From assembly GCA_016748015.1 (NCBI GenBank), contig JAAOMT010000226.1:287250-351249 (forward strand): DNA of 64,000 nt. Direction: 5' to 3'. The notes under the pieces were generated by a model. It searched no databases. It saw only the letters and a program-made list of their open reading frames with translations, and was not told the DNA's origin. The stretch's first letter is position 1. Each line of letters begins with the position of its first letter. A program made the translations under genes and the position numbers. The stretch comes from Geosiphon pyriformis uo1. Taxonomy: Eukaryota; Fungi; Glomeromycota. Positions 13,701 through 60,125 of the stretch are shown piece after piece.

Positions 13701-16700
13701 AGAGCTTTCTTTTATAAAAGCTTGGATTTTACCAGATAAAAACTACTAGACACATATTTATTACTATTGCAAGCCATATTATAGAGAATACTTTGATTAC
13801 CCTAAATAACAAAAAAGTAAAACAACAAATCATGTCTTGTTTGTAAAAAAATATTACTTAATAAAAAAATGTGGAATAACATTCCTGATTAAAGAAAAAT
13901 ATATAACACATTGTGTTAATACAAAATTGTTATTAGTAACTGAATAAGTCAAGAAACTTTTTTTAATGCCACATAAAACCAAGCATTCTTATGCTTGAAT
14001 AATTATCTATATAACAAAAATGAAATCTGGCAAATAACAAGTACTAAAATTGAAGACACTTCATTCAATAAGATATTCATGATCAAAAATAACCCATCAA
14101 AATTTGTTGAAACCATTCTTATTCCTAATTTAGATATTTTTATTAATATTTTAAGCAACTAAAACAATTTCATAAACATTATTAAAACTTAGCATTCACT
14201 AGAAAAAACAAGAGCAGTGTTTAGAACAATTAAATGCTAAATTCTGTAAATATTGCCTAATTTTTAGTGACTTCAAATATTGTAATAATTGTGATCTTAT
14301 CTATAATCCACTATTATACATGACTTATTTAATCTCCAAAAAAAAGAAACCAATTAGTGAATGTGCATTGAAATTGGAATTAAAATTTAATTACAATTCA
14401 GATTCTAACAATGATAACAATAATAATTCTAACTTTATCTATAATGGCAATAATAACAATAATGATTCAAATTTCAATTACAATCTCAAATAATATATTG
14501 TGCTTTCAGATTTGTCAATAGAGCAGAAACTAAAATGGTTTAGTAATAATAATAAAAGTATTATGTCAGAATGCACATATAATACCAATGCAGAATTTGA
14601 TTTCAGGTATCTAAAAAAAACTGCCATTAGATTGAAACCTTATTTATACACTAGTATAGATCTGAAAATAGCACTGAAAATTTTAACAACAACAATAGTT
14701 CAACTAGTCTCTAGATCTAATTTAGTGAAAAAAAGAATTAATATTAGAGAAAAAATAATTGATACAAGATATATAAAAAATATTATTGCAATGCTATAAA
14801 ACAACTCAAAATAAAATATGTAATTAAACTAAATAAAAAAATACCACAAGCAATATTTTTACCTCTAATTAAAATAGCTTAGTTAATATCAGAAGAAACA
14901 AAAAAAATGTTAAGGATTACAACAAAAAAGATAAAAGAATTCAAATTAATGAATAAAATAGATATATTAGTTAATATAGTAAAAAAAAACAATTAATAAG
15001 AAAAAAATTATTTTTATCTATTAATCAATTTCTATTTTACTATATAATTAGTATATAGTAGTTATAGAAAGGAAGATAAAAAACCAACCCCAAATTTTTG
15101 AAGTTAAAACAAACATTTATAAATTAAAAGAGATTGTTATTACCAATCTTTACATATTAGCCAAAAACCACAAACATATTAAAATTCCAATATACAACAT
15201 AATTAAAGACCTTATAGAAATACTAAATAGAACTACCATTAAATACTTAAACATTGCAGTTGAAAATCACTTACCAATTATTATTTCAGACTTTTTACAA
15301 CTTTGTGAATATGTAAATATCATATTACAAACTATATACAGATAAAAAAAATATTATTTGTTATAATTAGAACAATTAAAGCAAATAAACTTAAGAAATC
15401 TAGATTCACTTTAACAAATACAACTTAAAATGTTACTTAACAGCTTTACTAATATTTTTGTTAGTAAAAATGAATTTGGCAGAACTAATATTATTTAATA
15501 CCAGATCAAAACTGGAAATGTAATGTCAATTAAACAAAAAACATACAGAATACCACTAACCAGCTATAAAATCATCTAACAAAAAATCAACCAAATATTA
15601 AACAATAAATTAATTCAATTATTAATAAGCCCATAGTTATTACCAATAATATTTGTTCATAAGAAGAATAAAAAAATCCACTTTTGTGTAGATTACAGAA
15701 AACTGAACAGTATTATTTATAGAAACAGTTATTTAATTTTATAGATTTAAGAATTATTTAATATTATAGATAAACTAAGTAGGATATGGTGATAATATTT
15801 GGTGCTTAAGATTTGGGTTTTTAGGGAGCTTTTGATAGTTTTTTTTTAATAAACTTGTTTGGTGTATTAATGTTATTAATTTCTAAAAGTCTTCTTAATT
15901 GATATGAATTTACTCATAGAGTTTTTTAGTTATAAGGCACAGAAAGATGTTTTGTAGTGTTGTAACTTCTTGTATGTGAATGTGAGCTATTTTTTCTAAG
16001 CTAATAAGCACAGTTATTAAGGTTTGGCAGTGTTTTTTAACTCTTCTAATAAGCTACCAAAATAATATTAATATTCGAAAAAGCTTCTCTCTTTTACTAG
16101 GCTATTACGAAGTCTATTTCCAAACAGTCAATTTTTCTATGTTGCTGTTCTACTAAAGAGAATAAAAAAAAGAAAAGAAAATAAATAAAAATAAATAAAA
16201 ATAAAAAGAAAATAAGAAATTAATATCTTGTTAATAGCTGTGATCAAAAGCTATTGTTCCAAGGTAGTTAAGTATTAAATTTTATTAACATAAAATGTTA
16301 ATAATAATGACAGTGATTAATATTATTAATTAAGTAATAATAACATGAGTTTGAAGATAATAGATAATTTTATTGATAAGAAAATGATTTCACTTTAAGT
16401 TATAGAAAAATATCTTTTGAAAGAAAAGTATTGTTTTAAATTAATATAAATTCTATTGAATTCTCCAGGAATTTTTTTCTGGCTGTCTTTTTAACTTCTA
16501 CAACTATTTATTTTTATATATTTTTTTTGTTTTACAAAATTGCTTTTTAATTGTTTTATTTTTGCTAGTTATTGTTTTATTATTTTTGTTATTGCTTTAT
16601 TCTTTTATGTTATTACTAGTTATTCTATGTTTTAATTAAATATTTCATGCTATAACATGTTATTAAGTTTTGTATTATGTTATTCTGAGTTATTACACAT

Positions 16701-17810
16701 TATTCTGTGTTTTTTTATATTATCTTGTGTTATTATGTTTTTGATTATGTTTTTTTATAATTTGAATTTGTTTTTTTACTTGGATAACATTGATGTTTTT
16801 AAAAAAAAAAAATGGCTTTTAATATTAAACTTAGATAGTAGTTATTGACAAATAGCCATAAATTTAGCTGACAAAAAAAACAGTATTTACTATTAGAAAA
16901 AGAAACTTTGAATTTGATGTTATGTTATTTAACTTAACCAATATTCCAGCTATCTTCCAATGGCTTATAAAAATCATATATACTGGATTACTATGAAAAT
17001 CAGTAATAGTCTACTTGAACAACACCAATGTGTTCTTCAAAACATTTGATAACCATTTTCATTATTTTTAACAAGTGTTTGAAAAATTAAGAAGAGTTGA
17101 ATTGAAATTAAATGCAACTAAATGCTTTTTTGACAAAACTAAACTTAAGTTTTTGGAATATATTGTAAGCAAAAACAGCATAAAAACAGATTCAGACAAA
17201 ATTGAAATAGTCAAAAACTTTTTGGTACCAACAAATTTTACAGAATTAAGAGTATTCTTGAGATTTGCTGAATATTATTATCATTTTATTCAAAATTTTT
17301 CCAAATTGGCTCAACTATTTCACCAGTTCTAAGCAAAAAATATCAAATATAAATAAACAAAAACTTAACAAGAAGCTTTTGACATCTTAAAAAGAAAGCT
17401 TATTTAAGCACCAGTATTAATCTATTAATATTACAACAAGCCATTTATTATTACTATTAATGCATCTAGTCAAGCATTGAAGACTGTATTGTCACAAAAA
17501 AAAGCAGATAGACGAAAACATCTAGTGTTATATGTTAGCAAAAGTTTAAGTCCAGCCAAAAAGAACTATAAAACCTCAGCATTAAAATACTTAGCTATAT
17601 ATTAGACTGTTATTAAATAGAAAAAATACTTAAGTCAAAAGTTTGATGTTTATACTAATCACAAAAAATTGACATTAATCCAGAAACAAAAATTTGGAGA
17701 TAATTGTCATACAAGATAGAAAATAGAGTTATTACTATTTAATTATACTGTACATTATAAAAAAGAAAAAAAATAGAAATGTCAACAGTTTGTTATAAAT
17801 AAGAAAATTA
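10733..17810 (+). pseudogene. gag-pol: Element A polyprotein relic (N-extension-Gag-PR-Cys-rich-dUTPase-RT-RNase H), split by solo LTR E
   Basis: PR relic LIFDNSLVNS (~13100), dUTPase relic ORF 14500-14799, RT YLNN (from YLDD) ~17012, RT/RH relics 17075-17800; very many stops. Confidence 0.85.
15762..16789 (-). mobile_element. Solo LTR E (A/B-related family) inserted antisense in the RT of element A
   Basis: Minus-strand termini TGTTATCC...TATAATA; flanks TTAA (15758-61) and TTGA (16790-93) fit a mutated 4-bp TSD (probably TCGA); removing it restores E-L-F-D-(A)-F-(G-G)-K-K-W as in B; shares the GGAACAATAGCTTTTGATCACAGCTATT block with A/B LTRs. Confidence 0.85.
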
Positions 17811-19074: not shown

Positions 19075-19972
19075 TGTTACTTATAGAACATAAAAAGTAT
19101 ATTAGCATATAAATTAGCCAATCAGAAGTAGCCATAGTAAAATGTGAAATTCCAGGATTTCTTTCAAAAGAAATTGCAGAATTCCAGGAATTTCAGAATT
19201 CTCGTACAAAAGAATCACAAGATTCTAAAATTTCAGAATTCCACTAAAAAAAAATTGCAGGATTCCAGGAATTCCAAAATTTCTGGTGTGAAAAATTGAG
19301 GAATTGAGGAATCTCAATTATGTATATATAGCAGTAGTGCTAAAAGTAAAAAAGGCAGAATTCTTTAGTTAGAGACCTCTCAGTTTAGATTTGATCTAAG
19401 CAACCTTCCAATATTACAAATATCAATAAATAATTATTTACTATCTCCAATTTCACTCTTCACTATCAACACTTTATGTTGATAACAAGTAATACTTAAC
19501 TACACTAGAACAATAGCTCTTGATCACAGCTATTAATGGGATACTAACTTACAAATTGTCTTGGCTTATTTTCTTTATTTTTTTTTATTTTTTTTATTTT
19601 TTCTATTTCATTTCTGTGATTTTATTGTTGTGTACTAATTGATTGAAAGAGAATAACATGTGGAATACTGATGTCAAAGTGACTGGTAAAAGATCCAAGA
19701 ATAAGGGTAGAACATTCAATTAAGGATAGCTTATCAAGAGGAATACCAATTATCACACTGAAAAAAAAATTGACAAAACTATGGTTTTGGAAAGCTACAG
19801 ATAAACACTATTGAATCTCTGTCCATTATACAAAAAACTCAATTAAAATCTTTAGATAATAATACTTTTAGATACAAACAACCTTTAGATAAAATCATCA
19901 ACCAAAACATCCACCAAACACCAAGTTATGGGTTTGTTATTTCATTTGAGACCCCAAATCACACCTGTAACA
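19075..19972 (+). repeat. Element B 5' LTR
   Basis: Direct repeat of 47615-48505; U3 array of GAATTCCAGGAATTCC-like units ~19145-19315; TATATATA ~19323. Confidence 0.95.
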
Positions 19973-23277: not shown

Positions 23278-24248
23278 TGTTACCAGTAGAATTTTAGCTA
23301 GTAATTAGCATAAAATTATCCTTATAATCCCTATAATTAATTAGTATATTAATATTATTTCAAATTATCATTTATTATTTAATCAATTATTACATATTAT
23401 GATTTAATTAAAATAATCTAATTAGTATAACAAAAAGTAGAATGATCAAATTACACAATACTCTGAACTTTGTAACATTCTAAAATTCATCGAAATTTAC
23501 AAAAATTCGCCGAAATTTATAAGAAATTTGCCGAAATTATGAATAGTTCACTCAAATTAATCAATAGTTCAGCGAAATAACTTGTAGTTCATCAAAATTT
23601 GAGCAAAAAGAAAAAGTGCAAGTTTATAGACTAGTATTACAACAAGTTGTATAAAAAAAGAGCTTTTTTCTTCAAGAAAATGTATCTTACTTTAGATTTA
23701 TTACTTAGAACCATTCCTACATACACAAAGAGAAATAAATATCAAATAATTTGAAAAACCAAATTTTTTAATTATTGCACTTGGAAAATCCCCAAAACCC
23801 AATTAACATTTTGAAATTGATTAGCTACCAATTTCAGTAAACTGTTAGTGACTCCAGACCTGGATAGAAAACGTTTCTCTTGATAAAATCCTATTTCTTT
23901 TACCTTTCTTTTATTTTTCTTTTCTTTTCTTATTACAATCATTAGAGTAGCCTACAGACAAGATTCCTGTAGAAGAGTTGACTTTCACAGCAAAATAACT
24001 ACACATTTTTAGTGAGCTTTCAGATGAGCAATTCTTGGAAAAGAGTTGACATTTACTACAATGTAACTACATAAAATAACTGGCAAGAAATTGGCCATTT
24101 CATTTATAAGCCCAGCAGTTTAAATTATAAGAGATAATTTGAAGATAAATTCAGTTATTGGAGGTTCAACTACTTCTAAAAAACGTGAATTTACAACCAA
24201 CAGATAGTTACAACATTCAAGAAAAGAGACCAAAAACCTCCAGTAATA
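23278..24248 (+). repeat. Element C 5' LTR
   Basis: Direct repeat of 32189-33157; ~20-bp TTCGCCGAA-type repeats ~23480-23600; TATAAAA ~23650. Confidence 0.95.
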
Positions 24249-27200
24249 TTTGGTGCTCTCTCACAAAAATAACACAGCAACAACAAATTCAAAGTGGTAA
24301 CCACACCAGACACAACAACTTTAGAGTATCATCAGTTAATTTACACTCACTGCAAGCAAAGATTCAACATCCCAGACGGAATTGAAGTTGTCAAGAAATC
24401 AGTATACCAATATATTGAAAATTACATCAATAATTATCTTTTTAGAAATTACAACATTTCAGAAGTTAGAAGCAACCTCTACAATAATCTAGTGCACTAT
24501 TCACGATTGGAAACTAAAGACCTTAACAGTAAAACACTTGCCATCTACTTTCAAGAACTCAATTACAACATTATCAAATATTGTGAAGAAAAATACCCAG
24601 TACAGTCTAAATATTCTCTTAACTTTGAATCAAAAACAGAAACAAGCAACAAAGGCAAACAAAAAGTAAAACAATACTCAAGAACCACTCCAAACACTCC
24701 AATATTACCAAAGACAACTGCCAAACACTTGCAAACACCTGAACAAAGAATCAGTGTCAAATTACCACTTTCTATTACATCATTTCCAATTTCATTTGTT
24801 CAATCACAAACACCAAGTTCACCATTTAACTGTTTCTCTAAACCAGAAAATTTTCAGTCACCTAGAAATCTTACTCAACAACAGGAACCAATATCAACAA
24901 ATGCCAATATTATTGATTACTTACAGGAAAACGAAAGTAATCATTCAGAAAGCTTGGAAAGTGAAAAAACTGAACCAGAACCAGAAGAAGCCCCAAAAAA
25001 TGAAGAAGAAATGACAACTGCTTATATTGCAAAGATTCCAGAATTCACTGGTGAAGATAATGATACCAGTCCTCAAGAATGGCTTGACAAAATTTAAAAA
25101 ACAGGAGATACAAATAGTTGGAATGCAGCAAGAATGCTCAAAGCAATTCCATACTTTCTCCAAAACACTGCAGGAAAATGATTTGAAAACTTAGAAGAAC
25201 CATTTGAAAACTGGCAAGCATTCAAAGATGTTTTCCTATAACAATTTACTGACAACAACACTTCTATCACTCTCAGGAACCACTTTTGCAATATCAAATA
25301 AGAAACATCTGAAACTGTTATGACCTATCTTGGAAGATTCAACAAACTTCTCAGATGAATCTGACAATTGGAAACCAATAACTACTATTCTGATGCTTAA
25401 ATTCTGGATCAATTTATAGCAGAGTTAAAAGACAAACTGATTAAAAAAGTCCATCCACATGCTCCAGCAGACTTAGCAACTGCTATTAGACATGCAAAAA
25501 GTTATGAAATGGCAATGAAAAAAGCAAATCACACCAAGCTTGTAAACCTTGCAATTGGAGAAACCAGCTCAGTAGCTGAAAAGAAAATAGACCAATTTAC
25601 AAAAAAGGTTGAAAGCTACTTTACAAACCAACAACAATAGCAACAACAACTACAAAGATATCAATCTCTACAACAATGCAACCAAAACAACTTTGGATCA
25701 CCATCTAATAACCAACTTCAAAATTGTCACTATTGTGGAATTCCAAAATACTGGAAACGAGATTGCAGAAAACTACAAAGAGACCAACAAAACAGGAGTA
25801 ATCAATGTTATTCTTTATCACAACAATCTTATTACCAACCTCCACCACCAACCTATTATTTATCAAGACCACAAAATTAAAACAGTTACTATCCACCAGC
25901 TCCACAACCAATGCAGCAACAATATCAGCAATCTTTACCAATTTAGCCATATCAGACACCACTCACTTAACAATATCAAGTACCAGCAAGAAAATTGGTT
26001 CAACATAACCAATTCACATCCCAAAATCAATTGCAGAGTAACAACAACAGAATCAATCTAAATAACCAATTGGTTCCCCAAAATTCTGGTCAGCAAAGAC
26101 CTAATCACTATCACACTCAACCCAGTTATCTTATAATACCAGAAGAATCGGATTTTCAACAAACTGCACTTTCTGAAGATGAAGTTGTAGTACCAAGATC
26201 AAACCCTTCCAACCACACCATTTCACCAGCTCAAATTGCCCAAAATACCAATCTGTCAGATATATTTCCATTTGAATTTGAAGCAAATGAATCACCATTT
26301 CTGCTTAGTAATGCAGCAGTCAATGAACAGAAAGCAATTACTACTATGTACACAGAAGCTACAGTAAAAGGAAAACCCATTCGCTTAATCTTAGATAATA
26401 GATTGGCTGGAAGTATCATCACTTACCAGCTGATGCAACAACTCAAACAAAATGTAGACAAACCAGCTCAAACAGTTATTGTCATAGCTAATAGTATGAA
26501 AAAAACTCCAGTAGAAGAAATTGATGATTTTCCTTTTACAATTAATGGAATCACCATTCTAATTAAAGTTTTTGTTATAAATGTACCCCAATACTAAGCT
26601 TTAGTTGGAAATGATTGGCTTCTCAAGGCTAATGCAAATCTGAACTGGGAAACTCAAGAACTTAAAATCTCATACCAAGGACAATATACCATAGTACCTG
26701 CAACCTGTTGTACTTTTAACAAATAATCAGAAAAAGCTCCAGTATTTGAATTTGAAGAAGAAAAGGAAATGCCACTTACTGAAACTTACATGGCTCTTGA
26801 ATCACCATCTAATTGGGCTGAGAAAACAGAACAAGAGATTTTTAAAAAATTAAGAGAATAGAAGAAAATTAAATATTTCACACCAGAACCACGAAAAAAA
26901 CCACTATACATTCCATTAAAATGCAAAGATTGCAAAAAGAAGCTTTTATCTATGGAAGCCTGTATTTCCCCAGAAGAAAAATACAAAACTCGCACTTGTT
27001 ACTTCTGCAAGGCATGCCATAAAGGATGATTTGGATCCCCAAAGAGAAGTGGAAAATAAGACAAAACTTCTTGCCTTACTTGTGAAGAAATGCTACCAGA
27101 AGAATGCAATTGGATTGATGTAGCAATGAGAAGAGGAATATGTGATCAGATCTGTCAATATGCTCTATCAATTTCGGAAAAAGTCAGAAGAGGAACACCA

Positions 27201-29915
27201 TTTGATGCAGCATACAACAGTGCTCTCAATAAACTTTACCACTATCCTCATGAGGCTGAAATGATTTTTGACTTAGCAATAACATTGATCAATAGAGCCA
27301 CCCAAAAAGATGTCCACCAAATGAAAGAAGCTAAATACATTGAGTATACCATAGAATTAGCTGAATTTGATTATGAAGATGAAGTAGAAACCTACCACCA
27401 AATTGCAAGCCACATATATCCGACCAAAGAAGCTCAAATTCAATGATTAGAGCAAATGAACATTCAATTGTGTGAAGTATGTGTTATGCCTTGTGATAAC
27501 CAATAGTGTTTAAAATATTATGCTCTTAGCATTTCTCTGCCAGATGAGAATAATGAAAATAAAATCGAATTTGGAGTATTTGAATTAGTAAAAAACTATT
27601 AACCACTCCCATCTATCTTCTTGAAAAGCAACTATCTCTACAACTTAAATATTTTGACAACCATGGCCAAGGAATCAAACCAGAAAAAGCACACGAAATT
27701 GATGCTGGATATGACTTAAGATATCCAGGAAAAAATACTTTGGTTCTCCAATCAAAGTCCTTGACAAAAATCAATCTCAAAATTGCTCTTGAAATTTCAC
27801 CAGAAGCAATGGTTCAAATTGCCTCCAGATCATCATTGGCAAGCAATGGAATCAATATTAAAGGAGGAGTTATAGATGCAGAATACACTGGAGATATTAC
27901 CATCATGTTACAGAATGAAACAGACAAACCATTTAAAATTGAACATGCTGAAAAAATTGCTCAAGCAATTTACTTACCCTTAATCAAAATTTCGGGTTTA
28001 CAATCAGTAAACAACAAAGAACAATTGGGAAAAAGTGAAAGAGGAACTCAAGGTTTTGGTTCAACTGGACGATTTACAGTTTCAGTAAACATAGCTCTTA
28101 ATACACAAAATAAATCTCACCAGATTCTTCAACTTCCCCAGCCAATTACCATTTCATCTTTTGAAGAACATCACAAAATTTACACTTGCTCAAAACCCAT
28201 CACTACACAACAAATCTTTGAATTCAATGAACAAATCTGTTTGAAGCATGAAATCTCAATTCCAAACGTTTATATTCCCAAAGAAATGAAAAAATTTTGA
28301 GTTATATTCTACAACCCCAATAATTACCCTATTGTCTTATTAAACAAACTAGAGATTGGAATCATACACAGCAATATTTTTCAAGATGAAAACCCTCAAA
28401 TTGTCTCTAATTTCATCGAAATTGTAAGGTATACTCTACTCCCAAATCCAAATATCATTCTCACTACTGAAAACTACCATTTTTTGGAAAAAAAACTCTC
28501 TCAAATCAACATGAGTCCTTTAGAACTTCAACAACAAAGACAATTGAAACAATTGATAGCTGAATTTGCAGATATATTTGCAAAGACAACAATGACCTGG
28601 AAAAAACGGATATGGTTCAACATCAGATCCATATAAGAGATACTCCACCAAAACATTAGCAAGCTTACAGAGTGCCATCTGCCAGCCACCAATTCATCAG
28701 AGAAGAAGTCCAGAGAATGCTCAATAACGGATTGATTCAACCATCAAGAAGTCCTTGGGCCTCACCAGTAGTCTTTGTCAAAAAGAAAAATGGAAAAATC
28801 AGATTTTGTGTTGACTATCACCAATTGAACAATATGACAATTGAAGATGCCTATCCTCTTTCAAGAATTGATGACATGCTAGATGCTCTAGGAAAAGCCA
28901 AGTCTTCTCAACTTTAGACTTAGAAAGTGGATACTGGCAAGTTGAAATGAATCCAAAAGACCGACCCAAAACAGCATTCACTACCCAAGAAGGAAACTAT
29001 GAGTTCAATGTTATGTCTTTTGGACTCTGCAATACACCAGCAACATTCCAACGACTTATGGATGTTGTATATGAAGAACTCTTATGGCAATTAGTAGTTG
29101 TTTACCTTGATGATACTGATGTGTATTCACCAAGCTTTGAAGCCCATCTTATTCACCTATGAGAAATTTTTCAATGATTACAGAAAACAGGATTAAAATT
29201 AAACATTGAGAAATGTCACTTTGGAAAAACAAGCTTAATCTTTCTTGAATACATTGTAAGCAAAGATGAAGTCAAACCAAACCCTGGAACAATCAGTGCT
29301 GTCAAAAACTTCTAAACTCCCAAAAATACTACAGAGCTACGAAGATTTGTAGGATTAGCCTCTTACTATTGGAAATTCATCAAAGAATTCTCAAAAATTG
29401 CCAAACCACTCAATTATCTTACCAACAAAAATGTACCATACAAATAGACAGAAGAACAACAGAAAGCTTTTAAAACTCTCAAAACAAGATTGAAAACAGC
29501 CCCAGTTCTTGCATACCCAAACTTCAACAAACAATTTCAACTAGCCACTGATGCTTTACACATAGCATTCAGTGCCATCTTATCACAATTAGATGAAAAT
29601 GGGCAAGAACAAGTCATCGTCTATGCTAGTAGAACACTCAAACCAACAAAACTAAAATACGGCTCAACTAAATTAGAAGCTGCTGCAGTTATTTGAGCTC
29701 TTAAACATTTTTAACAATATCTGAAGAATGGAAAAGAATTTGACATAATAACGGACAACATTGGCCTTAAATGGCTCAATAAAAAGAAAACTGAACAAAG
29801 TGCCAAACAGTCTTGATAGAATGACTTCTTAGCAGATTACAGATATATTGTACACCACAAACCAGGAAAACTACATACCAATGTTGATAGCCTCTCAAGA
29901 ATGAGACAAGATTAA
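24189..29915 (+). pseudogene. gag-pol: Element C polyprotein: N-extension-Gag-PR-Cys-rich-dUTPase-RT-RNase H
   Basis: One frame from the LTR through 27446 (ORFs 24294, 25995 and 27090 share a frame); Zn knuckle CHYCGIPKYWKRDC at 25725; PR ILDNRLAGS; dUTPase; RT YLDD 29103-29114; ends NVDSLSRMRQD* (TAA 29913-15). Confidence 0.93.
27665..28072 (+). other. dut: Trimeric dUTPase domain within Pol of C (also D ~40550-40951, B ~33690-34095, A ~14535-14960)
   Basis: All five motifs present: DAGYDL, ASRSSLA, GGVIDAEYTGDI, EKIAQ, RGTQGFGSTG. Confidence 0.93.
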
Positions 29916-29973
29916 TACCAATAACAAATTCTATCACAACTTACCAACTTACCAACAAAATAACCAAACAAGA

Positions 29974-31358
29974 ATAGATCTCAGAAATTACAGCAATCTT
30001 AAAAATTATTTGGAGACTCTTACTATGCCAGAAAACTGGTTTCTAAGTAAAAAACATTGTTTACAACATCAATCAAAACAATATTTTATACACCAGAACA
30101 AAATCTATTATAAAAATCACAGAAACCCAAACCAACTACTCAGATTAGTACAAGAGAATAAAAAAAAACAATTTTATACAACATGCACACAGATTCATCT
30201 TCAGCACACTTGGGAAGAAATAGAACAATTCAAAGAACCCTTGAATATTATTTTTGGCCTTACATGTAAAAAGACATTTGACAATATGTAGAATCTTGTA
30301 ATAGTTGTCAAAAAAGAAGAGGAACTTGCTTCACAGAACCTTTAAATTCAATCAAAGTTGGACAACTTTTTGACAGAGTTGGAATTAATTTAGTCAGACC
30401 ATTACCTATTACAACCCAAGGAAATTACTATATTGCAGTAGCAGTAAATTATCTTACCAAATGGCCAGAAGCTAGAGTCATCCAAAAAGCAAATGCAAAA
30501 TCAGTAGCAAATTTCATCTATGAAGACATTATTTGTAAACATGGATGTCCAATTGAACTTTTATCTGATCAAGAAACACATTTTGTGAACAACTTGATAC
30601 AAGAAATTTGTGAACAGTTCAATGTCAAAAGACCTCTATTATCACCTTATTACTCTCAAACAAATGGACTTGTAGAACGTTTCAACAAAACATTGTGTGA
30701 ATCTCTAGCCAAAGTCTCAACAGACTTTAAGCAGAAATGAAATATCTTTATTCCATCAGTGTTACTAGCATACAGAATGCTAAAACAAGATACTATGAAA
30801 CACACACCATTTGATTTTACTTATAAAAGGACAGCAACATTACCAATTAATTTCACAGTAGAAACATATCCAGTGCAACCAATCAATGAAGAAATCTTTC
30901 AAGAAACACTCCAAAAAAAGGCCTACACTCTTCTTAGTACACTGGAAGAAAAAAAAAAAATAGCAGCAACTTATATTGAACATTCTTAAGCTCAACAAAA
31001 AGAAAGACATGACAACAAATTACCACCTATTACCAATGAATTTAAAATTGGAAATAAAGTTCTCTTACACAAAACTAAGACAGAAAAACAATGGAGTGAG
31101 AAATTTAAAAACAAATAGGATGGATCATTTTATATTCACGAAATTCTACACAATGAATTATACAAGTTAAGACTTGATGATAAAATACTAGCAAAAGTTG
31201 CACATGAAGACAAATTGAAACACTATCATTCCAGAAACAATCCTGAAACATTAATTCCACAAATTGGTACACATTCTCTTTTAATTAATTCTGAAGATAT
31301 TTCCCGAAATTTAGAACCAATAATTATAATAGAACAACAACCAAACTTGAACACTTAA
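29974..31358 (+). pseudogene. int: Element C integrase, separate ORF (start ATG eroded to ATA)
   Basis: HHCC (MHTD..AHL...SCNSCQ), LSDQETHF, NGLVERFN, GPF-like module; no chromodomain. Confidence 0.9.
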
Positions 31359-31500
31359 ATTTTACAATAATTTTCTAATAAAAACACAAAGACAAAAATA
31401 ATAAATAATTACAAAACACCCAAACCCAAAAACAAATAAAAACCCCATATCCAAAAATAATTTTTTTTATTCTTTCTTTTCATAATTAGTCAATTTTATT

Positions 31501-32208
31501 ATGATTATTTCCCGAAATATTCAACAAATATCCCAAAAGTTAATGTTAGCCTTGAAAACATTTCCAAACTTATCCATAACGATTAATAGAAGTTAAATTA
31601 ATTACATTCAGAAAGAAACCACAGCCCCAGTAGCAAATCATTTACAGAACTATCACCACTATGGAAAAAAAACAAGAAGTCACTCTGAAAATAGGTTACC
31701 AAAACTTTTGAAGCAAGCATTGAAAGAAAATTTTTTAATTGCCCCTATTGACATTTTACCAAATACTACAATGTAACAAAAACTTTTACTACTTCTCAAT
31801 GAACAGAACAATGGACACACCCTTATCTATAAATACTTTCACATTGGAAAGACACTTTATGAACGAAAACTGGAACTTGAAGCAACAAATCTCACTCCTA
31901 AAGCTATACAAAAACAAATTCACAATGAATTCAAAACAGCAGCTAGACTAACAAACACTTGCTACAAATTTAGAACAGCTTTTAGACTCTATAATTTGTT
32001 TAATACTTGTGAAAATGTTCTACAAAATTCAATACTACAACCAATAAAAGTCCAATACATTGGCAAACTCACAGAACTGAAATTTCAACAATTTTCAGAC
32101 TAGATTACTTCAATTATTTTGGATCACTATCTCAATATTACAGATAGTACTTGGACTTTGATAGAGCTCAGTCTTGAGGAGAAGATTATATTACCAGTAG
32201 AATTTTAG
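31501..32208 (+). pseudogene. Element C ORF3 (~235 aa, unknown function) running through the PPT into the 3' LTR
   Basis: MIISRNIQQISQKLMLALK...YFHIGKTLYERK...RLYNLF...IGKLTELKFQQF...LEEKIILPVEF* in one frame with three TAA/TAG stops at Gln-like positions; homologous in D, B and A. Confidence 0.85.
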
Positions 32209-33157
32209 CTAGTAATTAGCATAAAATTACCCTTATAATCCCTATAATTAATTAGTATATTAATATTATTTCAAATTATCATTTATTATTTAATCAATTA
32301 TAACATATTACGATTCAATTAAAATAATCTAATTAGTATAACAAAAAATAGGGTGATCAAATTACACAATACTCTGAACTTTGTAACATTCTAAAATTCA
32401 CCGAAATTTACAAAAATTCGCCGAAATTATGAATAGTTCATCCAAATTAATCAATAGTTCAGCAAAATAATTTGTAGTTCATTAAAATGTATCTTTAGTT
32501 TGCCAAAATTTGAGCAAAAAAAAAAAGTGCAAGTTCATAGACTAGTACTACAACAAGTTGTATAAAAAAAGAGCTTTTTTCTTCAAGAAAATTTATTTTA
32601 CTTTAGATTTATCATTTAGAACCATTCCTACACACACAAAAGAAATAAATATCAAATAATTTAAAAAACCAAATTTTTTAATTATTGCATTTAGAAAATC
32701 CCCAAAACCCAATTAACATTTTGAAATTGATTAGCTACCAATTTCAGTAAACTGTTAATAACTCCAGGCCTGGATAGAAAACGTTTCCCTTGATAAAATC
32801 CTATTTCTTTTACATTTCTTTTATTTTTTTTTATTTTTTTATTACAATCATTAGAGTAGCCTACAGACGAAATTCCTGTAGAAGAGTTGATTTTCACAGC
32901 AAAGTAACTACACATTTTTAGTGAGCTTCCAGATGAGCAATTTCTGAGAAAGAGTTGACATTTATTACAATGTAACTACATAAAGTAACTGGCAAAAAAT
33001 TGGCTATTCTACTTATAAGCCCAGCAGTTCAAATTATAGGAGATAATTTGAAGATAAATTCAGTTATTGGAGGTTCAACTACTTCTAAAAAACGTGAATT
33101 TGCAACCAACAGGCAGTTACAACATTCAAGAAAAGAGACCGAAAACCTCCAGTAACA
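32189..33157 (+). repeat. Element C 3' LTR
   Basis: Follows the PPT; ends AGTAACA followed by TSD ACAA. Confidence 0.95.
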
Positions 33158-36100
33158 ACAAAGACAAGATCTAGCAGATGGCAAATGCCAAAGTAGAAGA
33201 TGCTATGCCCAGTGAAATATTAGACATCAAGAACCAGTTAACATTGTTCTGATTTCCAATCCAGATGTTTTTCTGGATCTGGAAACTGGCCCAGAAGAAT
33301 TTTATGAACACTATCAAAATTTGACACCAACTAAAGAAAAACAGGAACAGCATGTGGAAAAAATAAACACCCAATTATGTGACCACTGTTTAATCCCATG
33401 TGACTTCCAGTATTGTAATGAGTGTGACTTCATCTACAATCCATGACCATGTATAATTTACACAAATCCAGAGGAAAACAAGCCAATTAACAACTGTGTA
33501 TTAGAATCAGAATCAATTTTCAATCCCAATTCAAACTTTGACAATGATAATAACAAAAACAATAGTTTCAGCTCTGCTCAAAATGACAATGGAGATAACA
33601 ACAATTTAAACTCTAATTCAAATTCTGAAACATTTATCGCACTTTTTAATCTCACCAAGGAACAAGAACTTAAATGGTTTAGTAATAATAACAAAGATAT
33701 TATGCCAGAATGGGTGCATAATACCAATGCAGAGTTTGATTTGAGATATTCAGAGAAGGATGCCATCAAATTGGAACCATATTTGCACACATGCATTGAT
33801 CTCAAAGTAGCATTAGAAATCCCAGCAACAACAATAATTCAATTAGTATTTAAGAGTAGTTTAGGGAAAAAAGAAATTAACATTAAAGAAAGAATAATTG
33901 ATGCAAGATATGTAGAAAATATTATTGCAATGCTACAAAATGATTTAGAAAAGACTATGTCATAGAGCCAAATGAAAAGATAGCACAGGCAATATTCCTG
34001 CCTCTGGTTAAAATAGCTCAATTAGTATCAGTAGAAAACAGAAAAGAATTAGGGATTACAGCTAAAGAAATACAGAGATTCAGATTCACAGATAGAATAG
34101 ATATACCAGTCAATATGACAGAGAAAGAGGCTATTGACAAAGAAGAAATTATCTTCACCCATCAACCAATTTCCATTTCATCATATGACTAGTATATGAT
34201 AACTATAGAGAAAAAAGTGAAGGATCAAGTTCAAATATTTGAGGCAGAAGCACAACTTTGTAAATTAGGAGAGATTGGATTAATTAATCTACACATACCA
34301 GCCAAGAATCATAGTCACATTAAAATTTTTATTTACAACAACACGGAAAACATCATGGAGATATCAGAAGAAACTACCATTGGATACTTAACCATTGAAA
34401 TTAAAGAACAACAACCAAATCTTATTCCAAACTTTTCACAATTGTGTAGATATGTGGATATTACATCACAAACAATATATGGACAAGAAAAATATTATCT
34501 GCTCCAATCAGAACAATTAGAACAAATAAACTTGGGAAACTTAGACCCACTACAACATATTCAACTTAAAATGCTACTCAACAATTTCAATAATATCTTT
34601 ACCAGTAAAAACAAATTTGTTAGAATTGACATCATCCAATATCAAATTAAGCCTGGAGATGCAATGCCAATTAAACAGTAAGCATACAGAGTACTACCAG
34701 TTAGCCATAAAATCATTCGTCAAAAAATCAATCAAATGCTTGACAATGGGCTAATTCAGCCATTAATGAGCCCATGGTCATCACCAGTGATACTAGTCCA
34801 TAAGAAAATTGGGAAAATTTGCTTTTGTGTAGATTACTGGAAACTGAATGGAGTGACCAAAGGAGATAGCTATCCAACTCCAAAGATCCAAGAATTGTTC
34901 AATGCTTTTGGAGGAAAGAAATGATTTTTGACACTAAATTTAGACAGCAGTTATTGGCAAGTAGCCATAAAACCAGAAGACAAAGAGAAAACAGCTTTTA
35001 CAACTTGGGAAAGAAACTTTGAATTTGAAGTAATACCATTTGGCTTAACGAATACTTCAGCCACTTTTTAGTGACTTATAGAAATTGTTTATACTGGGTT
35101 ACTATGAAAATCAGTAGTCATATACTTGAATAACACCAATGTGTTCTCAAAAACATTTAATAATCATCTGTATTATCTTCAACAAGTGTTTGAAAGACTA
35201 AAAAGAGCCAAATTAAAGCTAAATGCAATTAAATATTTCTTTGAAAAGACTAAACTCAAGTTTTTGGGACATGTAATGAGCAAAAATGGAATCAAAACAG
35301 ATCCAGACAAGATTGAGATTGTTAAAAACTTTCTAATACCAAATAATCTCACAGAACTAAGAACATTCTTGGGATTTGCTAGATACTACTGCCACTTTAT
35401 CAAGAATTTTTCTAAAATAGCTCAACCACTACACCAACTCCAAACAAAAAACACCAAATATGAATGGACATAAATTCAGCAAGAAGCTTTTGATACATTA
35501 AGAAGAAAGCTTATTTAAGCTTCAGTACTAATTTATTCAGATCATAGCAAGCCATTCATAATCATAACTGATACATCTGGCCAAGCATTGGGAGCAGTAT
35601 TATCTCAGAAATGACCAGACAGACAAGAACATCCAGTAACATATGCCAGTAGAAGCTTAAGTCCAACTGAAAAAAACTATGAAACTCCAGCACTGAAACA
35701 CTTAGCTATCTATTGGGCTGTCACCAAATAGAAAAAATACTTGAGTCAAAAGTTTGATGTATACACCAATCACAAAGAATTGACTTCAATCCAGAAACAA
35801 GAGTTTGCAGATGATTGCCATGCCAAATAGAAAATAGAACTTTCATTATTTAATTATATAGTACATTATAAAAAGGGAAAAGAAAACAGAAATGCTGACA
35901 GATTGTCACGAATGAGACAAATCTAAAAACATTTCAACCCAAAAATATAACAAAAGATGAATATACAAAAATACCAACAACTTCAACATTATATAAATAT
36001 TCAATTGTTTAAAGAGAAATTATCTCAAAAGGAACAATACAACATAAAACAACAATCAAAATATTTTATCAACCACCAAAATATACTTTACCAAAAAAAT

Positions 36101-36452: not shown

Positions 36453-37164
36453 TGTTACCAGATAAAATTAGAGATATTATTTAGCATAAAATTATCTTTA
36501 TAATCTCTATTATTAATTAGCATATATTATTATTTCAAATTATCACTTATTACATTAGCAAAATGTCCAAAATTATCATTTAATTAATAATTCAATTTGC
36601 ACATAACATAAATGTAACCTAATTGTAATGATCAATCATGCAATACCCCGAACTATATAACATTCAAAAAACCAAATTCTTTAAATTATTGCACTTAGAA
36701 AATTTTCAAAACTCAACTAATGTTTTGAAATTAATTAGCTACCAATTTCAATAAACTGTTAGTGACTCCAGACCTGGATCAAAAACAATTTCCTTGACAG
36801 AATTCAATTTTTTTTTACATTTCTTTTATTTTTCTTTTATTTTCTTATCATAATTATTAAAGTAACCTACAGACAAGATTCCTGTAAAAGAGTTGACTTT
36901 CACAGCAAAGTAACTATATATTTTTAGTGAGCTTCCAGACAAGCAATTCCTGAGAAAGAGTTAACATTTACTACAATGTAACTACACAAAACAACTGGCA
37001 TGGAAATGGCCATTCCACTTATAAGCCCAGCAGTTCAAATTATAGAAGATAATTTGAAGATAAAATTCAGTTATCGGAGGTTCAAACACTTCCCATAATC
37101 ATGAATTAACAGCATTACAACAAACATACAAGAGCTAAGAAGAGACCAAAAACCTCTGGTAACA
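36453..37164 (+). repeat. Element D 5' LTR (712 bp; ~270-bp internal deletion)
   Basis: Matches 45038-46019 except for the segment between two ATTCAAAAA copies (45247 and 45518). Confidence 0.93.
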
Positions 37165-40100
37165 TTTAGTACTCTCCCACAGAAACAACACAGCAAAAAC
37201 AACTTCAAAGTGGTGACCACACCAGACACAACAACTCTAGAGTATTACCAGTCAATTTACACCCACTGTAAGCAAAGATTCAACATTCCAGACGGAATTG
37301 AAGTTGTCAAGGAATCAGTATACCAATACATTGAAAACCACATCAACAATTATCTTTTTGGAAATTACAATATCTCAGAAGTTAGAAGCAATCTTTACAA
37401 TAATTTAGTACACTATTCACAGTTGGAAACTGAAGACCTTAACAGTAAAACACTTGCCACTTACTTTCAAGAACTTAATTTTAACATTATCAAGTACTGT
37501 GAAGAAACATATCCAGTGCAGTCTCAATACTCTATTGATTTTGAATCAGAGACAAAAACAAGCAACAAAGACAAACAAAAATTGAAGCAATACTCAAAAA
37601 CCACCCCAAATACTTCAATACTACCAAAAACAACTGCCAAACACTTACAAACATCTGAACAAAGAACCAGTTCAAAACTTCCACTTACTATCACACCTTT
37701 TCCAGCTTTACTTGTACAAGCACAAACACTTAATTCACCCTTAAATCAATTTGCAAGACTAGAAGATTTTACATCATCCAGAAGTCCCACCAGACAACAA
37801 AAACCCCTTCAAACTAGTTCCAATCTCCTTAACTTTCTAGCTAAAAATCGAAGTGAACACTCTGAAACAGCAGTGAACAAAGAAAATGACTCTAAAATAT
37901 TTAAAGAAGAATCAATAGACAGTGAAAATGAAGAAGACGAAATAACAGCATACATCGCAAAAATCTCTGAATTTAATGGAGAAGACATTGAGACCAGTCT
38001 CCAAAAATAGCTTGACCAAGTTACTAAAGCTGGAGATGCAAATTGATGAAATGCTGCTAGAATGTTAAGAACAATTCCCTACTTTCTCAAAAGAACAGCA
38101 GATGAATGGTTTGAAAACTTGACCACCCCTTTTAATGACTGGACAGCTTTTAAAACTGCCTTCTTAGAACAATTCACCAATAACAACACCTCAATCACAC
38201 TTCGAAATTGTTTTCACAATATTAAACAAAAACCCTCAGAAACTGTCATAACTTATATTGAGAAATTCAACAAACTTCTCAAACAAATTTGCCAACTTGA
38301 AACTAATGATTATTATTCTGATGCTTAAATCTTGGATCAATTTATCACTGGTTTAAAGGATAAACTGATTAAAAAAGTTTGTCCACATGCTCCAGAAGAT
38401 TTAAACTCTGCCATTCAGCATGCAAAGAGATATGAAATGGCCATGGAAGAAGCCAATCATACAAAACTCATGAACTTAGCCATTGGAGAGACCAGCTCAG
38501 CAGCTGAAGAGAAAATTGACCAGCTCACAAAGAAAGTCAAAAACTATTTCACCAACCAACAACAACAGCAACCCCAAAGATATCAACCACCCCAAAGATA
38601 AAATCAAAACAACTTTGTATCATCCTCTAATAACCAGTCTCAGAATTGCTATGACTGTAGAATCTTTGGCCACTGGAAAAGAGATTGCAAAAAGCTACAA
38701 CAAGACCAACAAAACAGGAGTAATCAACGTTACTCTTCGCCACAACAATCTTATTACCAATTACCACTATCACCAGCTTACTATTTACCAAGACTGCAAT
38801 ATTAAACTGACTACTATCAACCTGCTCCACAGCCAATGCAACAACAGTATCGACAACCCATTCAACATTACCAAGTATCTGCTTGAAAATTGGTTCAACA
38901 AAACCAATTTGCACCACAAAACTGATTTGTAACAAACAACAACAGAATCAACCCAAATAACCAATTAGTTCCCTGAAATCCAGCTCAGCCAAGACCCACC
39001 TATTATCATACTCAACCTAGCTATCTTACAATACCTGAAAAACAGGATTTTCACTATACTGCACTCTTAAAAGGTAGAGCTACAGCATAACAACAAAACC
39101 CTTTCTATACTCCTATCACAATCCCACCAGCCAGAATTGCTGAAAATGCCAATCTTTTAGATATATTCCTTTTTGAGTTCGAAGCAAATGAGTCATCATT
39201 TCTGCTTAGCAATGCAGCCGCCAATGAACAAAAAGCAATTACTGCTATATACACTGAAACAGAAGTCGAAGAAAAGGCAATTCACTTGATCTTAGACAGT
39301 GAATCCGCTGGAAACATTATCACCTACCAGTTAATGCAACAGTTAAAGAGAAATGTTGACTGACTAGCTCAAACAGTAATTGTTACTGCCAATGGCATAA
39401 AAAAGACTCCAGTAGAAGAAATTGACAATTTTCTATTCACTCTTGATGGAATCATCATTCCAGTCAAAGTTCTTGTAATGGATGTGCCCTAGTATCAAGC
39501 CTTGGGAAATCCAAGAATTACAACTCTCCTATTAAAAACAATATGCCTAAGTACCCACTACTTGTGGTATATTCAACAAATGATCAGAAAAAGCCCCTGT
39601 CTTCGAATTTGAAGAAGAGAAAGAAAAGCCTGTAGTCAAAACATTTATGGCACTTGAATTAATATTTAACTGGGCTGAAGAAACTGAGCAAATGTATTTT
39701 ACAACAAACTCATATTCAGAGGAACCAGAAACCCCTGGATAGAACATCCCATATTTTAAACCAGAACCAAAAAAATGACATCCTTACATTCCGCTCAAAT
39801 GCAAGGACTGTCACAAAAAACTCTTCTCAATGGGAGCCTGTATTTCACCTGAAGAAGAATATGAAAATTATACTTGTTATTACTGCAAGACTTGCTACAG
39901 AGAATGATAGGGCCATCTAATAAAAAGAAGTGGAAAATAGGACAACACCCCTTGTTTGACTTGTGGAGATATGCTACCAGAAGAATGCAATTGGATTAAT
40001 GTAGCAATGAGAGGAGGAGTCTGCAATTAAATCTGCCAATATGCTTTATCAATTTCAGAAAAAGTCAAAAGAGAAACACCTTTTGATGCAGCATACAACA

Positions 40101-42793
40101 ATGCTCTCAACAAACTTTATCACTACCCCCATAATGCTGAGATGATTTTCGACCTAAAAATGGCATTAGTTAATGGAGCTACCAAAAAAAATGTTCGTCA
40201 AATGAAAGAAGCAGAATACATTGAATACACCATGGAATTAGCTGAATTCAATTATGAAAATGAAATAGAAGTGTATCATCAAATCACAAGTCACACCTAC
40301 CTGACTAAAGAAGCTCAAGCTCAATGGCTAGAACAAATGAACATTAAATTATGTAAGGAATGCATAATGTCTTGTAATAAACAATGGTGTTCTGAATGCT
40401 ATGCTCTTAGCATTCTCTTGCTCAGCAAAAGTAATAAATACAAAATTGAATTTGGAGAACCTGAAGCAACAGAAAAAATTGAAACAACACCCATCTATCT
40501 CATTGAAAATCAGCCTGTTTTACAACTCAAATACTTTAACAACAACGGACAAGGAATAAAACCCGAAAAAGCACATGAAATTGATGCTGGATATGATCTA
40601 AAATATCCAAACAAGGATACTCTCATTCTCAAACCCAAATCTTTCACAAAAATCAACCTCAAAATTGCTCTCGAAATCCTGCCAGGAGTAATAGTTCAAA
40701 TCGCCTCCCAGTTCTCTCTGGCAAGCAAAGAAATCAATGTCAGAGGAGGAATAATTGATGCTGGATATACTGGTGACATAACAGTAATACTCCAAAACGA
40801 AACTGACAAGCCATTTAAGATTAAACATGCCGAGAAAATTGCCCAAGCCATTTATTTATCCTTAATCAACATTTTGGGTTTACAATTAGTTAATCAAAGA
40901 GAACTATTGGGAAAAAGTAAAAGAGAAACCCAAGGTTTTGGTTCAACTGGATGATTCACAGTTCCAGTAAATATAGCCCTCAACAAACAGAAAGAATCTC
41001 ACCAGATTTTTTGACTTCCACAACCAATTACTATTTCACTCTTTGGAGAATACCCTAAAATTTACACTTGTAAAAAGCCAACAACCACACAACAAATTTT
41101 TGAGTCCAATGAACAAATCTGCTTGGAACATAATATCTTGATCTCAAACATTTATATTCTAGAAGGAACAAAGAAAATCCGAGTTACTTTTTACAATTCC
41201 AACAATTTCTTTATAGTTTTATTAAATAACTTAGAAATTGGAGTTATTCACAGTAATATCTTTCAACAAAAATTACCTCAAACAGTCCCCAATTTCTCTG
41301 AAATTATTGGACATTTACTACTAAAAATCAACCCAAACCCCAGCTCTGAAAACTACCATGTTGTTATAAAAAAACTATCTCAAATCAACATAGGACAACT
41401 TGAACCACAACAACAGAGCCAGCTCAAAGAGCTAATTGCAGAATTTGCAGATATTTTTGCTGAAAACAACAATGACTTAGGAAGAACTGATTTGGTCTAA
41501 CACCAAATCTATATAAGAGATACCAAACCAAGGCGACAGCAAGCCTACTGAGTTACTCCAGAAAGCCACCAATTTATCTGCAAAAAAGTACAACAGATGC
41601 TCAACAATGGACTTATCCAACCATTAATGAGTCTATGGGCCTCACCTATGGTCTTAATTAAAAAGAAAAATGGAAAGATACAATTTTGTGTTGATTATTG
41701 ACAACTCAACAGTGTCACTATTGAAAATGCCTATCTTTTTCTCCGAATTGATGATATGTTAGATGCCCTTGGAAAGGCCAAATACTTTTCAACACTAGAT
41801 CTAGAAAGCGGATACTGGCAAGTTGCCATGGACCTCAAAGATTGTTCTAAAACAGCCTTCACAACCCAAGGAGGAAACTACAAATTCAATGTAATGCCTT
41901 TCGAATTATGCAATGCACCAGCAACATTTCAGAGATTAATGGATATTGTGTACAAAGAACTTCTTTGAAAGTCAGTAGTCATTTATCTTGATGATACTGA
42001 TGTTTATTCTCCATCATTTGAATTACACTTAAAACACCTGCAAAAAGTTTTTCAATAATTACAAAAAGCAGAACTGAAACTCAACATCAAAAAATGCTAC
42101 TTTGAAAAAACAAGCTTGGCCTTTCTTGGTCACATCATTAGTAAAGATAGAATCAAACTGGACTCTGGAAAAATCAGTGCTGTCAAAAACTTCAAAACTC
42201 CTCAAAACACTACAGAACTAAGAGAATTCATAGGGTTAGCCTCCTACTATCGGAAGTTTATTAAAAGATTCTCAGAAATTGCAAAATCTCTCAACCAGCT
42301 TACTACCAAAAATGTCAAATACAAATGGACTGCTGAACACCAAAACGCATTTGAAATCTTCAAAGAAAAACTAATGACAGCTCCAATTTTTGCCTACCCA
42401 GATTTCAGCAACCGATTTCGGTTAGCAACAGATGCCTCTTATACTGCCTTTGGTGTCATTCTATCACAGTTAGATGACAATGGAAATGAGCAAGTAATTG
42501 TTTATGCTAGCAGAACATTGAAACCAGCCAAAAAGAACTACCCTGCAACAGAATTAGAAACTGCAGCAGTAATCTGGGCCCTACATCACTTCAACCTTTA
42601 CCTCAGACCCAAAGAATTCGATATTATTACTGATAATATTGGACTCAAATGGCTTCAGAACAAAAACACTCAGCTAAACGCAAAATAAATCTGATGGACA
42701 GGATTTCTAGCTAACTACCAATATATTGTACACCACAAATCAGAAAAACTCTACACCAACGTTGATTGTCTCTCAAGAATGAGGCAAGATTAG
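37105..42793 (+). pseudogene. gag-pol: Element D polyprotein (~1,900 codons reconstructed)
   Basis: One frame to ~39500, a ~44-nt deletion at the end of PR, then one frame through ORFs 40142, 41123, 41756 and 42116; PR ILDSESAGN; dUTPase; YLDD 41984-95; ends NVDCLSRMRQD* (TAG 42791-93). Confidence 0.93.
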
Positions 42794-42839
42794 AATACAA
42801 AACCAACACTCATTTGAATTAACAACAAAACAACAAACA

Positions 42840-44224: not shown

Positions 44225-44349
44225 CTTAAATTTATTATTATAGTTATCTTCTTATAATTTAGAAACAATCTTACAAAAACAAAGCAAAAATAACATAAAA
44301 AAAACCCATACACCAAAAATAATTTTCTTTTATTTTCAAATCTTTTATA

Positions 44350-59990: not shown

Positions 59991-60125
59991 TGTTGTTTTA
60001 TTTGGTTTGAGTAATTGATCATATATAATAAAAACATAAATTGTATTTAATTTAAGCCATTTAGTTTAATTCTATATATTAAATAACAATTGAATTTCAG
60101 TCATAAAATGTTAATAAAAAAAATT

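Follow-up and report, generated by a model that had tools for sequence, protein, structure and literature searches.

Nested Ty3/Gypsy elements of Geosiphon pyriformis with a stand-alone integrase gene and a non-Env third open reading frame

Four nested elements of two families

This analysis relates to a stretch of 64,000 nt of the Geosiphon pyriformis uo1 genome (contig JAAOMT010000226.1, positions 287,250 to 351,249; hereafter the window, to which coordinates refer) and in particular to a Ty3/Gypsy retrotransposon that it contains, element A. Comparison of the window with itself revealed four elements bounded by long terminal repeats (LTRs) and nested in one another, with C holding D, and D holding both A and B:

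9801-50291, forward strand: element C, the oldest, of the family of D; interrupted where D and an LTR-like piece in reverse orientation are inserted
19075-48505, forward strand: element D, second family; interrupted by A, which lies within its Cys-rich insert, and by B, within its integrase
23278-33157, forward strand: element A, decayed Ty3/Gypsy; LTRs 94.4% identical, target site duplication (TSD) ACAA at both ends
36453-46019, forward strand: element B, which forms one family with A (76% identity in nucleotides); deletion of ca. 270 nt in the 5' LTR; TSD CCAG

C and D constitute the second family. Identity between the two LTRs of an element is 93.0% in B, 86.6% in D and 84.8% in C, and TSDs are of 4 bp in all four elements (ATAT/ACAT and ACAG in the two outer ones). 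The original prediction of four independent insertions from two families with 4-bp TSDs is therefore borne out, the insertions being nested. Every copy is dead: 336 of the 357 scored LTR mismatches are transitions, CpG occurs in A at 0.15 of expectation, and C is too decayed for a clean reading of its RNase H/integrase junction. The reverse transcriptase (RT) of C is interrupted, at ca. 15710-16790, by an LTR-like piece that is in reverse orientation and belongs to the C/D family.

In A and B, Pfam matches occur in the order Retrotrans_gag, dUTPase, RVT_1, RNase H, integrase H2C2 and rve. The plan that had been proposed for all elements, in which LTRs enclose Gag, protease (PR), a Cys-rich insert, dUTPase, RT and RNase H, followed by separate integrase and third open reading frames (ORF3), holds in its order and coordinates, except for a second "dUT-like" domain that is unsupported (see below).

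The integrase is encoded apart from RT and RNase H

In element A, the region in which pol is interrupted comprises:

28630-29915, forward strand: RT and RNase H, ending with TAA at 29913-29915; reading frame disrupted by stops and a frameshift
29916-29973, forward strand: spacer between the RNase H stop and the integrase start; 58 nt, G-poor, C/A-rich and ATG-free
29974-31358, forward strand: stand-alone integrase with a YPYY-like N-terminus, H2C2 finger, DDE core and GPY/F region

The terminal RNase H stop was located at 42791-42793 in B and at 35924-35926 in D, and the integrase start codon reads ATG in both (42840 and 35957, respectively) and ATA in A. The distance from stop to integrase is 46 nt in B and 30 nt in D, with the integrase in frame +1 in A and B and in frame 0 in D, which has a second in-frame stop. 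The spacers of B and D are, like that of A, G-poor and C/A-rich. Since 8 of 62 stop sites are common to A and B through C-to-T/G-to-A decay, which can thus mimic shared stops, the RNase H stop within the window alone is weak evidence for a split gene.

Related loci were taken as the best 80 of 566 metagenome matches to stand-alone integrases. A protein search with the integrase could not return fused forms, and the DNA of the 80 loci was therefore examined. RNase H was found upstream in 50, the rest being mostly short contigs or loci bearing an extension, and in none of these 50 does the RNase H frame run into the integrase; relative frames 0, +1 and +2 occur 14, 20 and 16 times. The two genes overlap in 10 loci (-20 to -1, including TAATG and ATGA), are separated by up to 100 nt in 24 and by more in 16, so that spacers, which fall in all three frames, range from -20 to about +500 nt; three longer ones (L075, L076 and L059 with 943, 1026 and 371 nt), kept in the count of 50 and set outside the quoted range, are likely breaks in the extension that follows RNase H. 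A Met stands at the start of the integrase profile in 74 of the 80 loci, with a purine at -3 in 66 of these 74. Likewise, among the 120 integrase matches listed, mostly 38-50% identical, 92 start with Met exactly at the Met of B, two of them from Rhizophagus irregularis.

Separate RT and integrase trees had been proposed as a check in the original prediction. Both were built from window copies and related loci only, and they are largely congruent: 16 of 21 supported splits in the RT-RNase H tree and 18 of 23 in the integrase tree are shared, with two conflicts, and A, B and D cluster together in both. This agreement argues that the integrase has been co-inherited with RT. A single fused element was seen, L081, with a frame of 1321 aa and a distant position in the tree. 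The integrase of B had no match in viral contigs, where the integrase profile found only distant ones (including L081). One member of the integrase family, P0405, is filed under an Acidobacteria metagenome-assembled genome and is likely fungal contamination of a bin.

An alternative is that stops and frame changes reflect hypermutation of an ordinary PR-RT-RNase H-integrase pol, ORF3 being a chance frame. The excess of transitions in the LTRs and the stop sites common to A and B are what hypermutation would produce, yet in many relatives the frames of Gag-Pol, integrase and ORF3 are entirely open and the split is kept, the integrase Met is invariant, and ORF3 is under selection (see below). 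Intact split relatives and the fixed Met refute this explanation, to which we give practically no weight. As judged from the sequences of these intact relatives, among which no continuous RT-RNase H-integrase frame was found, the split of pol is real and not a product of decay, and the stand-alone integrase that had been predicted is confirmed. The architecture in three cistrons is almost certainly genuine.

ORF3 is conserved, under selection and not Env-like

The frame downstream of the integrase was located in both elements of the first family:

31501-32208, forward strand: ORF3 of A, 235 codons; crosses the polypurine tract (PPT) and stops inside the 3' LTR
44350-45069, forward strand: ORF3 of B

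A scan of the whole window with an ORF3 profile found the copies of A and B and none in C and D, although D carries a homologue by hhalign (93%, E 2.7e-7). Differences between A and B in ORF3 are distributed as 31, 13 and 52 over the three codon positions (of 134), which indicates purifying selection, when the spacer between integrase and ORF3 displays no third-position bias (12, 9 and 8). ORF3 is matched by 205 proteins, and an all-library profile search returned 36. All 120 matches listed for ORF3, and all 120 listed for the Cys-rich insert, are proteins named as those of G. pyriformis, with best identities of 84% and 76%, respectively, which points to this fungus or a close relative as the likely host. 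In the related loci, an ORF follows the integrase in 37 of 79, and 29 such ORFs could be aligned with a common motif pattern.

None of 40 ORF3 proteins has a membrane segment (Kyte-Doolittle 19-mer of at least 1.6), and ORF3 matched no Pfam family over the cut-off, no Env family and no PDB sequence. The prediction of a conserved non-Env ORF3 thus stands, the frame being under selection and present in both families. AlphaFold on the pooled ORF3 alignment gave a helical core (pLDDT 84), for which Foldseek found nothing at E<=0.001 in the PDB and viral sets; the best hit of the VIA fold search had a Z of 5.2 (root-mean-square deviation 4.8, 78 aligned), and Atlas pointed, as a weak lead, to clusters without names at 0.93-0.94, recognition being low. 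A likeness to DUF1016_N was below the cut-off, with 6 of 50 members and a best E of 0.015; by hhalign it reached 13% over 61 columns, and 7.6% and 1.2% with other alignments, one of five plasmid pieces having been left out of this comparison for a stop. In the ORF3 slot of L017 (HTH_24, E 8.5e-6) and, more weakly, of L027, unrelated helix-turn-helix proteins are found. Based on these proteins and on the sub-threshold likeness to DUF1016_N, ORF3 may be a nucleic-acid-binding regulator; that it regulates the element has roughly even chances.

Possible routes to a free integrase

The reading that we favour, and hold to be slightly more probable than not, is that element A represents, as a dead copy, a lineage of fungal Ty3/Gypsy elements with a separate integrase, expressed by reinitiation, and a soluble ORF3 regulator. 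Gag, PR, the Cys-rich insert, dUTPase, RT and RNase H would be made as one polyprotein. Where stop and start overlap, ribosomes would restart directly after termination; alternatively, and this would be the case of the window elements, they would scan a short AUG-free spacer before restarting. The free integrase would then enter the particle by binding RNA or Gag/Pol, and not as part of a polyprotein. Read-through or frameshifting would be excluded by the mixed frames and the fixed Met. Termination followed by restart is favoured because of the stop/start overlaps and because short spacers are poor in ATG, 22 of 24 having none when 9.9 would be expected from shuffles. In this family, reinitiation may be the integrase route with a probability that we put near one half.

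Several observations weigh against this scheme. The control triplet ATC is also depleted (absent from 17 of 24 short spacers against 7.0), so that the lack of ATG is partly compositional. Ribosomes that have translated a very long ORF usually reinitiate with low efficiency unless special signals assist them, and no such signal was seen by eye upstream of the stops. Fused members may occur beyond the best 80 of 566 loci. ORF3 is not universal, since 11 loci with more than 1 kb downstream of the integrase have none, and only 3 of 37 post-integrase ORFs reach E<0.001 against an ORF3 profile made from Geosiphon alone. Finally, the long spacers of one subclade (L015, L024, L032, L040 and L046) hold 4-10 ATGs, which scanning cannot cross, and AG occurs just before the integrase start in A and D, as would fit splicing.

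These last two features speak for an alternative, in which the integrase, and ORF3 with it, would be translated from subgenomic mRNAs of their own, produced by splicing from a donor in the LTR or from an internal promoter. Donor-like and acceptor-like motifs are indeed present in the LTRs (see below), and the ORF3s of LTR elements are typically expressed by splicing according to the accessible parts of two reports (PMC5408684; CERV, PMC10309623). However, 12 of the 24 short spacers have no AG in their last 30 nt when 6.4 would be expected, B has none in the last 44 nt of its spacer, and the 10 tight stop/start overlaps among 50 loci are left unexplained by splicing. Subgenomic mRNAs are a possible route, clearly less probable than reinitiation.

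A third route, internal initiation, would depend on a cis-acting RNA in the spacer that recruits ribosomes, blocks a nuclease or is cleaved to yield a short mRNA. The feature that speaks for it is new: an RNA structure of ca. 40 nt that occurs in one subclade before the integrase ATG, in 21 loci by pattern and in 24 of the 80 by a covariance model at E<1e-8 (L010, L020, L022, L025, L027-L029, L034, L035, L041, L042, L044, L045, L048, L053, L063, L064, L066, L067, L069, L071 and L074-L076; example L025:3349-3396). Each locus has one copy, ending within ca. 25 nt of the integrase ATG and composed of a short stem, an 11-nt purine-rich bulge, a 6-bp covarying stem and an 8-nt loop. Overall, 97.9% of the cells are paired and 7 of 12 pairs have changed on both sides, a level of pairing that was not attained in any of 500 shuffles and that compares with 22-45% in slid controls, the sequences being related and the pairs having been chosen on the very alignment that was scored. 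In 13 loci nothing reached the Rfam gathering score, the best E for one spacer was 4.4, and the pattern was found in neither viral contigs nor prokaryote genomes. Against internal initiation, the structure is absent from the elements of the window and from most other subclades, and a hairpin so near to the ATG might just as well act as a repressor of initiation or a protein-binding site; we regard this route as improbable.

Two further features of spacer RNA were noted by eye. The bulge and the loop of the covarying structure could form a 2-bp pseudoknot, and the spacer of L058 (3737-3833) has two interleaved 5-bp stems that could form an H-type pseudoknot before the integrase ATG.

Domains carried within Pol

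Between PR and RT, element A displays three segments in addition to the enzymes common to Ty3/Gypsy elements:

26880-27560, forward strand: Cys-rich insert, common to both families; no known family
27647-28075, forward strand: trimeric-type dUTPase (Pfam PF00692, E 1.5e-23)
28076-28510, forward strand: conserved coding segment between dUTPase and RT

Differences between A and B by codon position are 45, 27 and 75 in the Cys-rich insert, which retains its cysteines, and 21, 15 and 52 in the dUTPase, so that both are under selection. The insert matched nothing in Pfam or by Foldseek, its structure model being poor (pLDDT 53). All five dUTPase motifs are seen among Geosiphon copies, each window copy carrying decay changes, and the enzyme scores similarly against eukaryotic, viral and bacterial dUTPases; a pattern search of prokaryote genomes found none. 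The presence of both domains, as predicted, is real, but they were seen only in Geosiphon-type copies, the dUTPase having no match in the 80 related loci, and they represent local cargo. A dUTPase located between PR and RT has, in any case, been described before in Gypsy elements of fungi and rotifers (PMC2864245, PMC5408684). The third segment has no Pfam match and a profile probability of 0.04% against dUTPase; the claim of a second "dUT-like" domain is not upheld.

Other domains occupy these and neighbouring positions in relatives: a NUDIX domain between PR and RT in L076 and after the integrase in L047, a thymidylate-kinase-like domain, below the cut-off, after RNase H in L062, and an Mrr-type nuclease before the integrase in L077. 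The dUTPase would be one of several swappable nucleotide-metabolism cargos, together with the NUDIX and thymidylate-kinase-like domains, which would serve reverse transcription by keeping the dNTP pool clean or supplied.

In L010 (4940-5719), L025, L028, L045, L063, L071, L074 and others, RNase H is followed by an extension of 220-400 aa that contains a conserved Cys/His domain, 18 columns being invariant among 12 sequences. It travels with the spacer RNA and had no Pfam match in the two cases tested. Homology of the Cys-rich insert of the window with this domain was considered and rejected (1.2%). In L008, L014, L017, L030 and L056, a different Cys-containing insert is located between PR and RT, at the position of the window's insert.

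Gag region, LTRs and termini

Upstream of the Pol cargo, the coding region of A comprises:

24294-25010, forward strand: N-terminal extension of Gag, a coding stretch under selection that lacks an in-frame ATG in both A and B
25011-25766, forward strand: Gag capsid region and CCHC knuckle
26340-26720, forward strand: aspartic protease, placed by tblastn and the LILD motif, with Pfam on its neighbours

The extension is coding, as indicated by differences of 49, 32 and 66 by codon position between A and B (of 239). Its conservation begins near a GTG at 24294 that is found in both; A and B share no ATA before 24702, and an ATA common to C and D, at 20051, may have arisen from an ATG by decay. An extension without ATG, as had been predicted, holds for A and B but not lineage-wide, since 19 of 22 relatives have a Met within the first 31 codons of Gag, and an ATG-less start would at most be a trait of A and B. 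The Gag N-termini of relatives (L002, L004, L010, L011, L017, L024, L027, L028, L039, L045 and L065) display by eye a common domain, unlike the extension of the window, in which His and CxxC residues are followed by helices; Pfam gave no match for it in L010 and L017. In seven loci that belong to one well-supported subclade (L011, L012, L015, L024, L037, L065 and L068), one in-frame stop separates Gag-PR from RT-RNase H, a candidate for read-through at an unusual place.

The non-coding features of A are as follows:

23278-24248, forward strand: 5' LTR, with a TATA-like box (23650-23656), AATAAA (23734-23739) and a long putative U5, the U3/R/U5 borders being placed from motifs only
23802-23864, forward strand: conserved hairpin of the LTR and, after it, a near-palindrome of 12 nt that is perfect in the 3' LTR
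24154-24246, forward strand: U5-terminal stem, in which 24154-24166 pairs with 24235-24246
24251-24262, forward strand: primer binding site (PBS), beginning 2 nt past the LTR end
32176-32185, forward strand: PPT
32189-33157, forward strand: 3' LTR

U5 is better conserved between A and B (identity 0.86-0.93, 1-3 transversions per 100 columns) than the LTR upstream of it (0.71-0.84, 7-11 transversions). It holds several short conserved stems, and the U5-terminal stem is significant at 5 of 6 LTR ends in the window (p<=0.005 against shuffles), the C/D family having at the corresponding position a stem that differs in sequence. The predicted structured U5 is correct for this set of short stems but not as an unusually stable fold overall: 150-nt segments of U5 mostly have z values from -2.1 to +1.7, only 3 of 103 consensus pairs changed on both sides, and in relatives the terminal stem is weak (5 of 21 at p<0.05).

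The 3' arm of the LTR hairpin of A contains a donor-like GT, with a T-rich tract and AG ca. 100 nt downstream, motifs that could have a role in splicing. An intron-like stretch with a T-rich tract ending in AG was noted in the LTRs of both families (23802-23950 and 19520-19650), with a branch-point-like motif in C/D and the donor-like GT inside the hairpin in A. The 12-nt palindrome is a candidate RNA dimerisation site. It is perfect at 32762-32773, in the 3' LTR of A, and each of the three remaining copies departs from it by a single transition.

Outside the elements, the region 51100-63300 is composed of degenerate direct and inverted repeats and is very AT-rich (10-20% GC), and a decayed RT remnant was detected at 62543-63300.

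Wider significance

By the textbook account, the integrase of LTR elements and retroviruses reaches the particle within the Pol polyprotein, and a lineage that has retained a free integrase gene through deep divergence must have other solutions for initiation, dosage and packaging. The short spacers, the stop/start overlaps and the 40-nt RNA are testable parts of such a solution, ready for reporters. A self-starting integrase gene would also be a plausible route to Ginger-type DNA transposons. More tentatively, we would propose that these elements represent an old, widespread and undescribed Gypsy lineage of soil fungi that is run like an operon, whose independent integrase would be started by a device specific to each subclade (overlap, unstructured C/A-rich leader or covarying RNA) and packaged in trans, ORF3 being a new family of regulators and the free integrase the missing step to transposons of the Ginger1 type.

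For G. pyriformis itself, in which LTR sequence makes up 41% of the genome (PMC11952901, from the part accessible), hundreds of "hypothetical proteins" are pieces of these elements, a point of relevance for gene counts. The two papers on transposable elements of arbuscular mycorrhizal fungi, that one included, give only class-level counts in their accessible parts; their element libraries may hold these families unnamed.

Comparison with known systems

The elements belong to Ty3/Gypsy by their termini (LTRs with TG..CA ends, TSD, PBS and PPT) and by the domain order PR-RT-RNase H-integrase. Among solved structures, RT-RNase H (query L033) is closest to Ty3 with 332 bits, against 226 for 8r0s and 125 for foamy virus, and a profile of the integrases of 46 relatives is also closest to Ty3 (178 bits against 115 for foamy virus). 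Compared to Ty3, the type element, with which they share LTRs, PBS, PPT and gene order, the present elements have an integrase gene with its own ATG outside Pol, a third, non-Env gene and a long N-terminal extension of Gag. The description as "complex-retrovirus-like" is therefore an analogy only, with ORF3 having neither a transmembrane segment nor an Env match. They do not have the single-frame pol of ordinary Gypsy elements, and no chromodomain, as in chromoviruses, was matched by Pfam in the elements or among the integrase matches.

The group with a YPYY integrase comprises, in the accessible part of its description, Athila/Tat, Cer1, Gypsy-1_RO, DGLT-A1 and the Ginger1 DNA transposons (PMC2836005). 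Likenesses to this group are the GPY/F region, TGTNR ends and, as a candidate judged by eye, a YPYY-like segment of ca. 40 residues before the H2C2 finger. Ginger1 further shares, on the same partial basis, the 4-bp TSD and an integrase of ca. 400 aa starting at its own Met. The elements differ from Ginger1 in having LTRs, RT and RNase H and in lacking terminal inverted repeats, a CCGG target preference and an OTU/Ulp1 domain, and here the integrase tree follows the RT tree. An assignment to Ginger1 was rejected, as RNase H is found upstream in 50 of 80 loci and LTRs are present in the window.

A PR-RT region with dUTPase and an extra non-Env ORF3 are features of Gypsy elements of Postia, Phanerochaete and Tuber (PMC2864245) and of the bdelloid elements Juno, Vesta and TelKA (PMC5408684); the accessible parts of these two papers describe no split of integrase from pol, and the rotifer ORF3s (PMC5408684) are Env-like, GDSL or DEDDy proteins, unlike the helical ORF3 found here. 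CERV of the C. elegans Cer1 element (PMC10309623), a small non-Env accessory protein made from a spliced mRNA, is a precedent for a regulator of RNA export in Gypsy, and small non-Env accessory proteins are reportedly also encoded by plant aORFs (PMC7264820); both are likened to ORF3 by their descriptions. No published clade of Gypsy elements with a separate integrase ORF was found in the open literature, the search being confined to it and leaving Repbase Reports, GyDB, REXdb, Dfam and supplements outside.

Termination-reinitiation at TAATG or ATGA overlaps occurs in RNA viruses and some non-LTR elements, and the stop/start overlaps of 10 of the 50 relatives are similar. Foamy viruses express Pol separately and have, likewise, an enzyme that needs to enter the particle without fusion to Gag. 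Compared to these systems, the unit that is set apart here is the integrase alone, and most spacers measure tens of bases.

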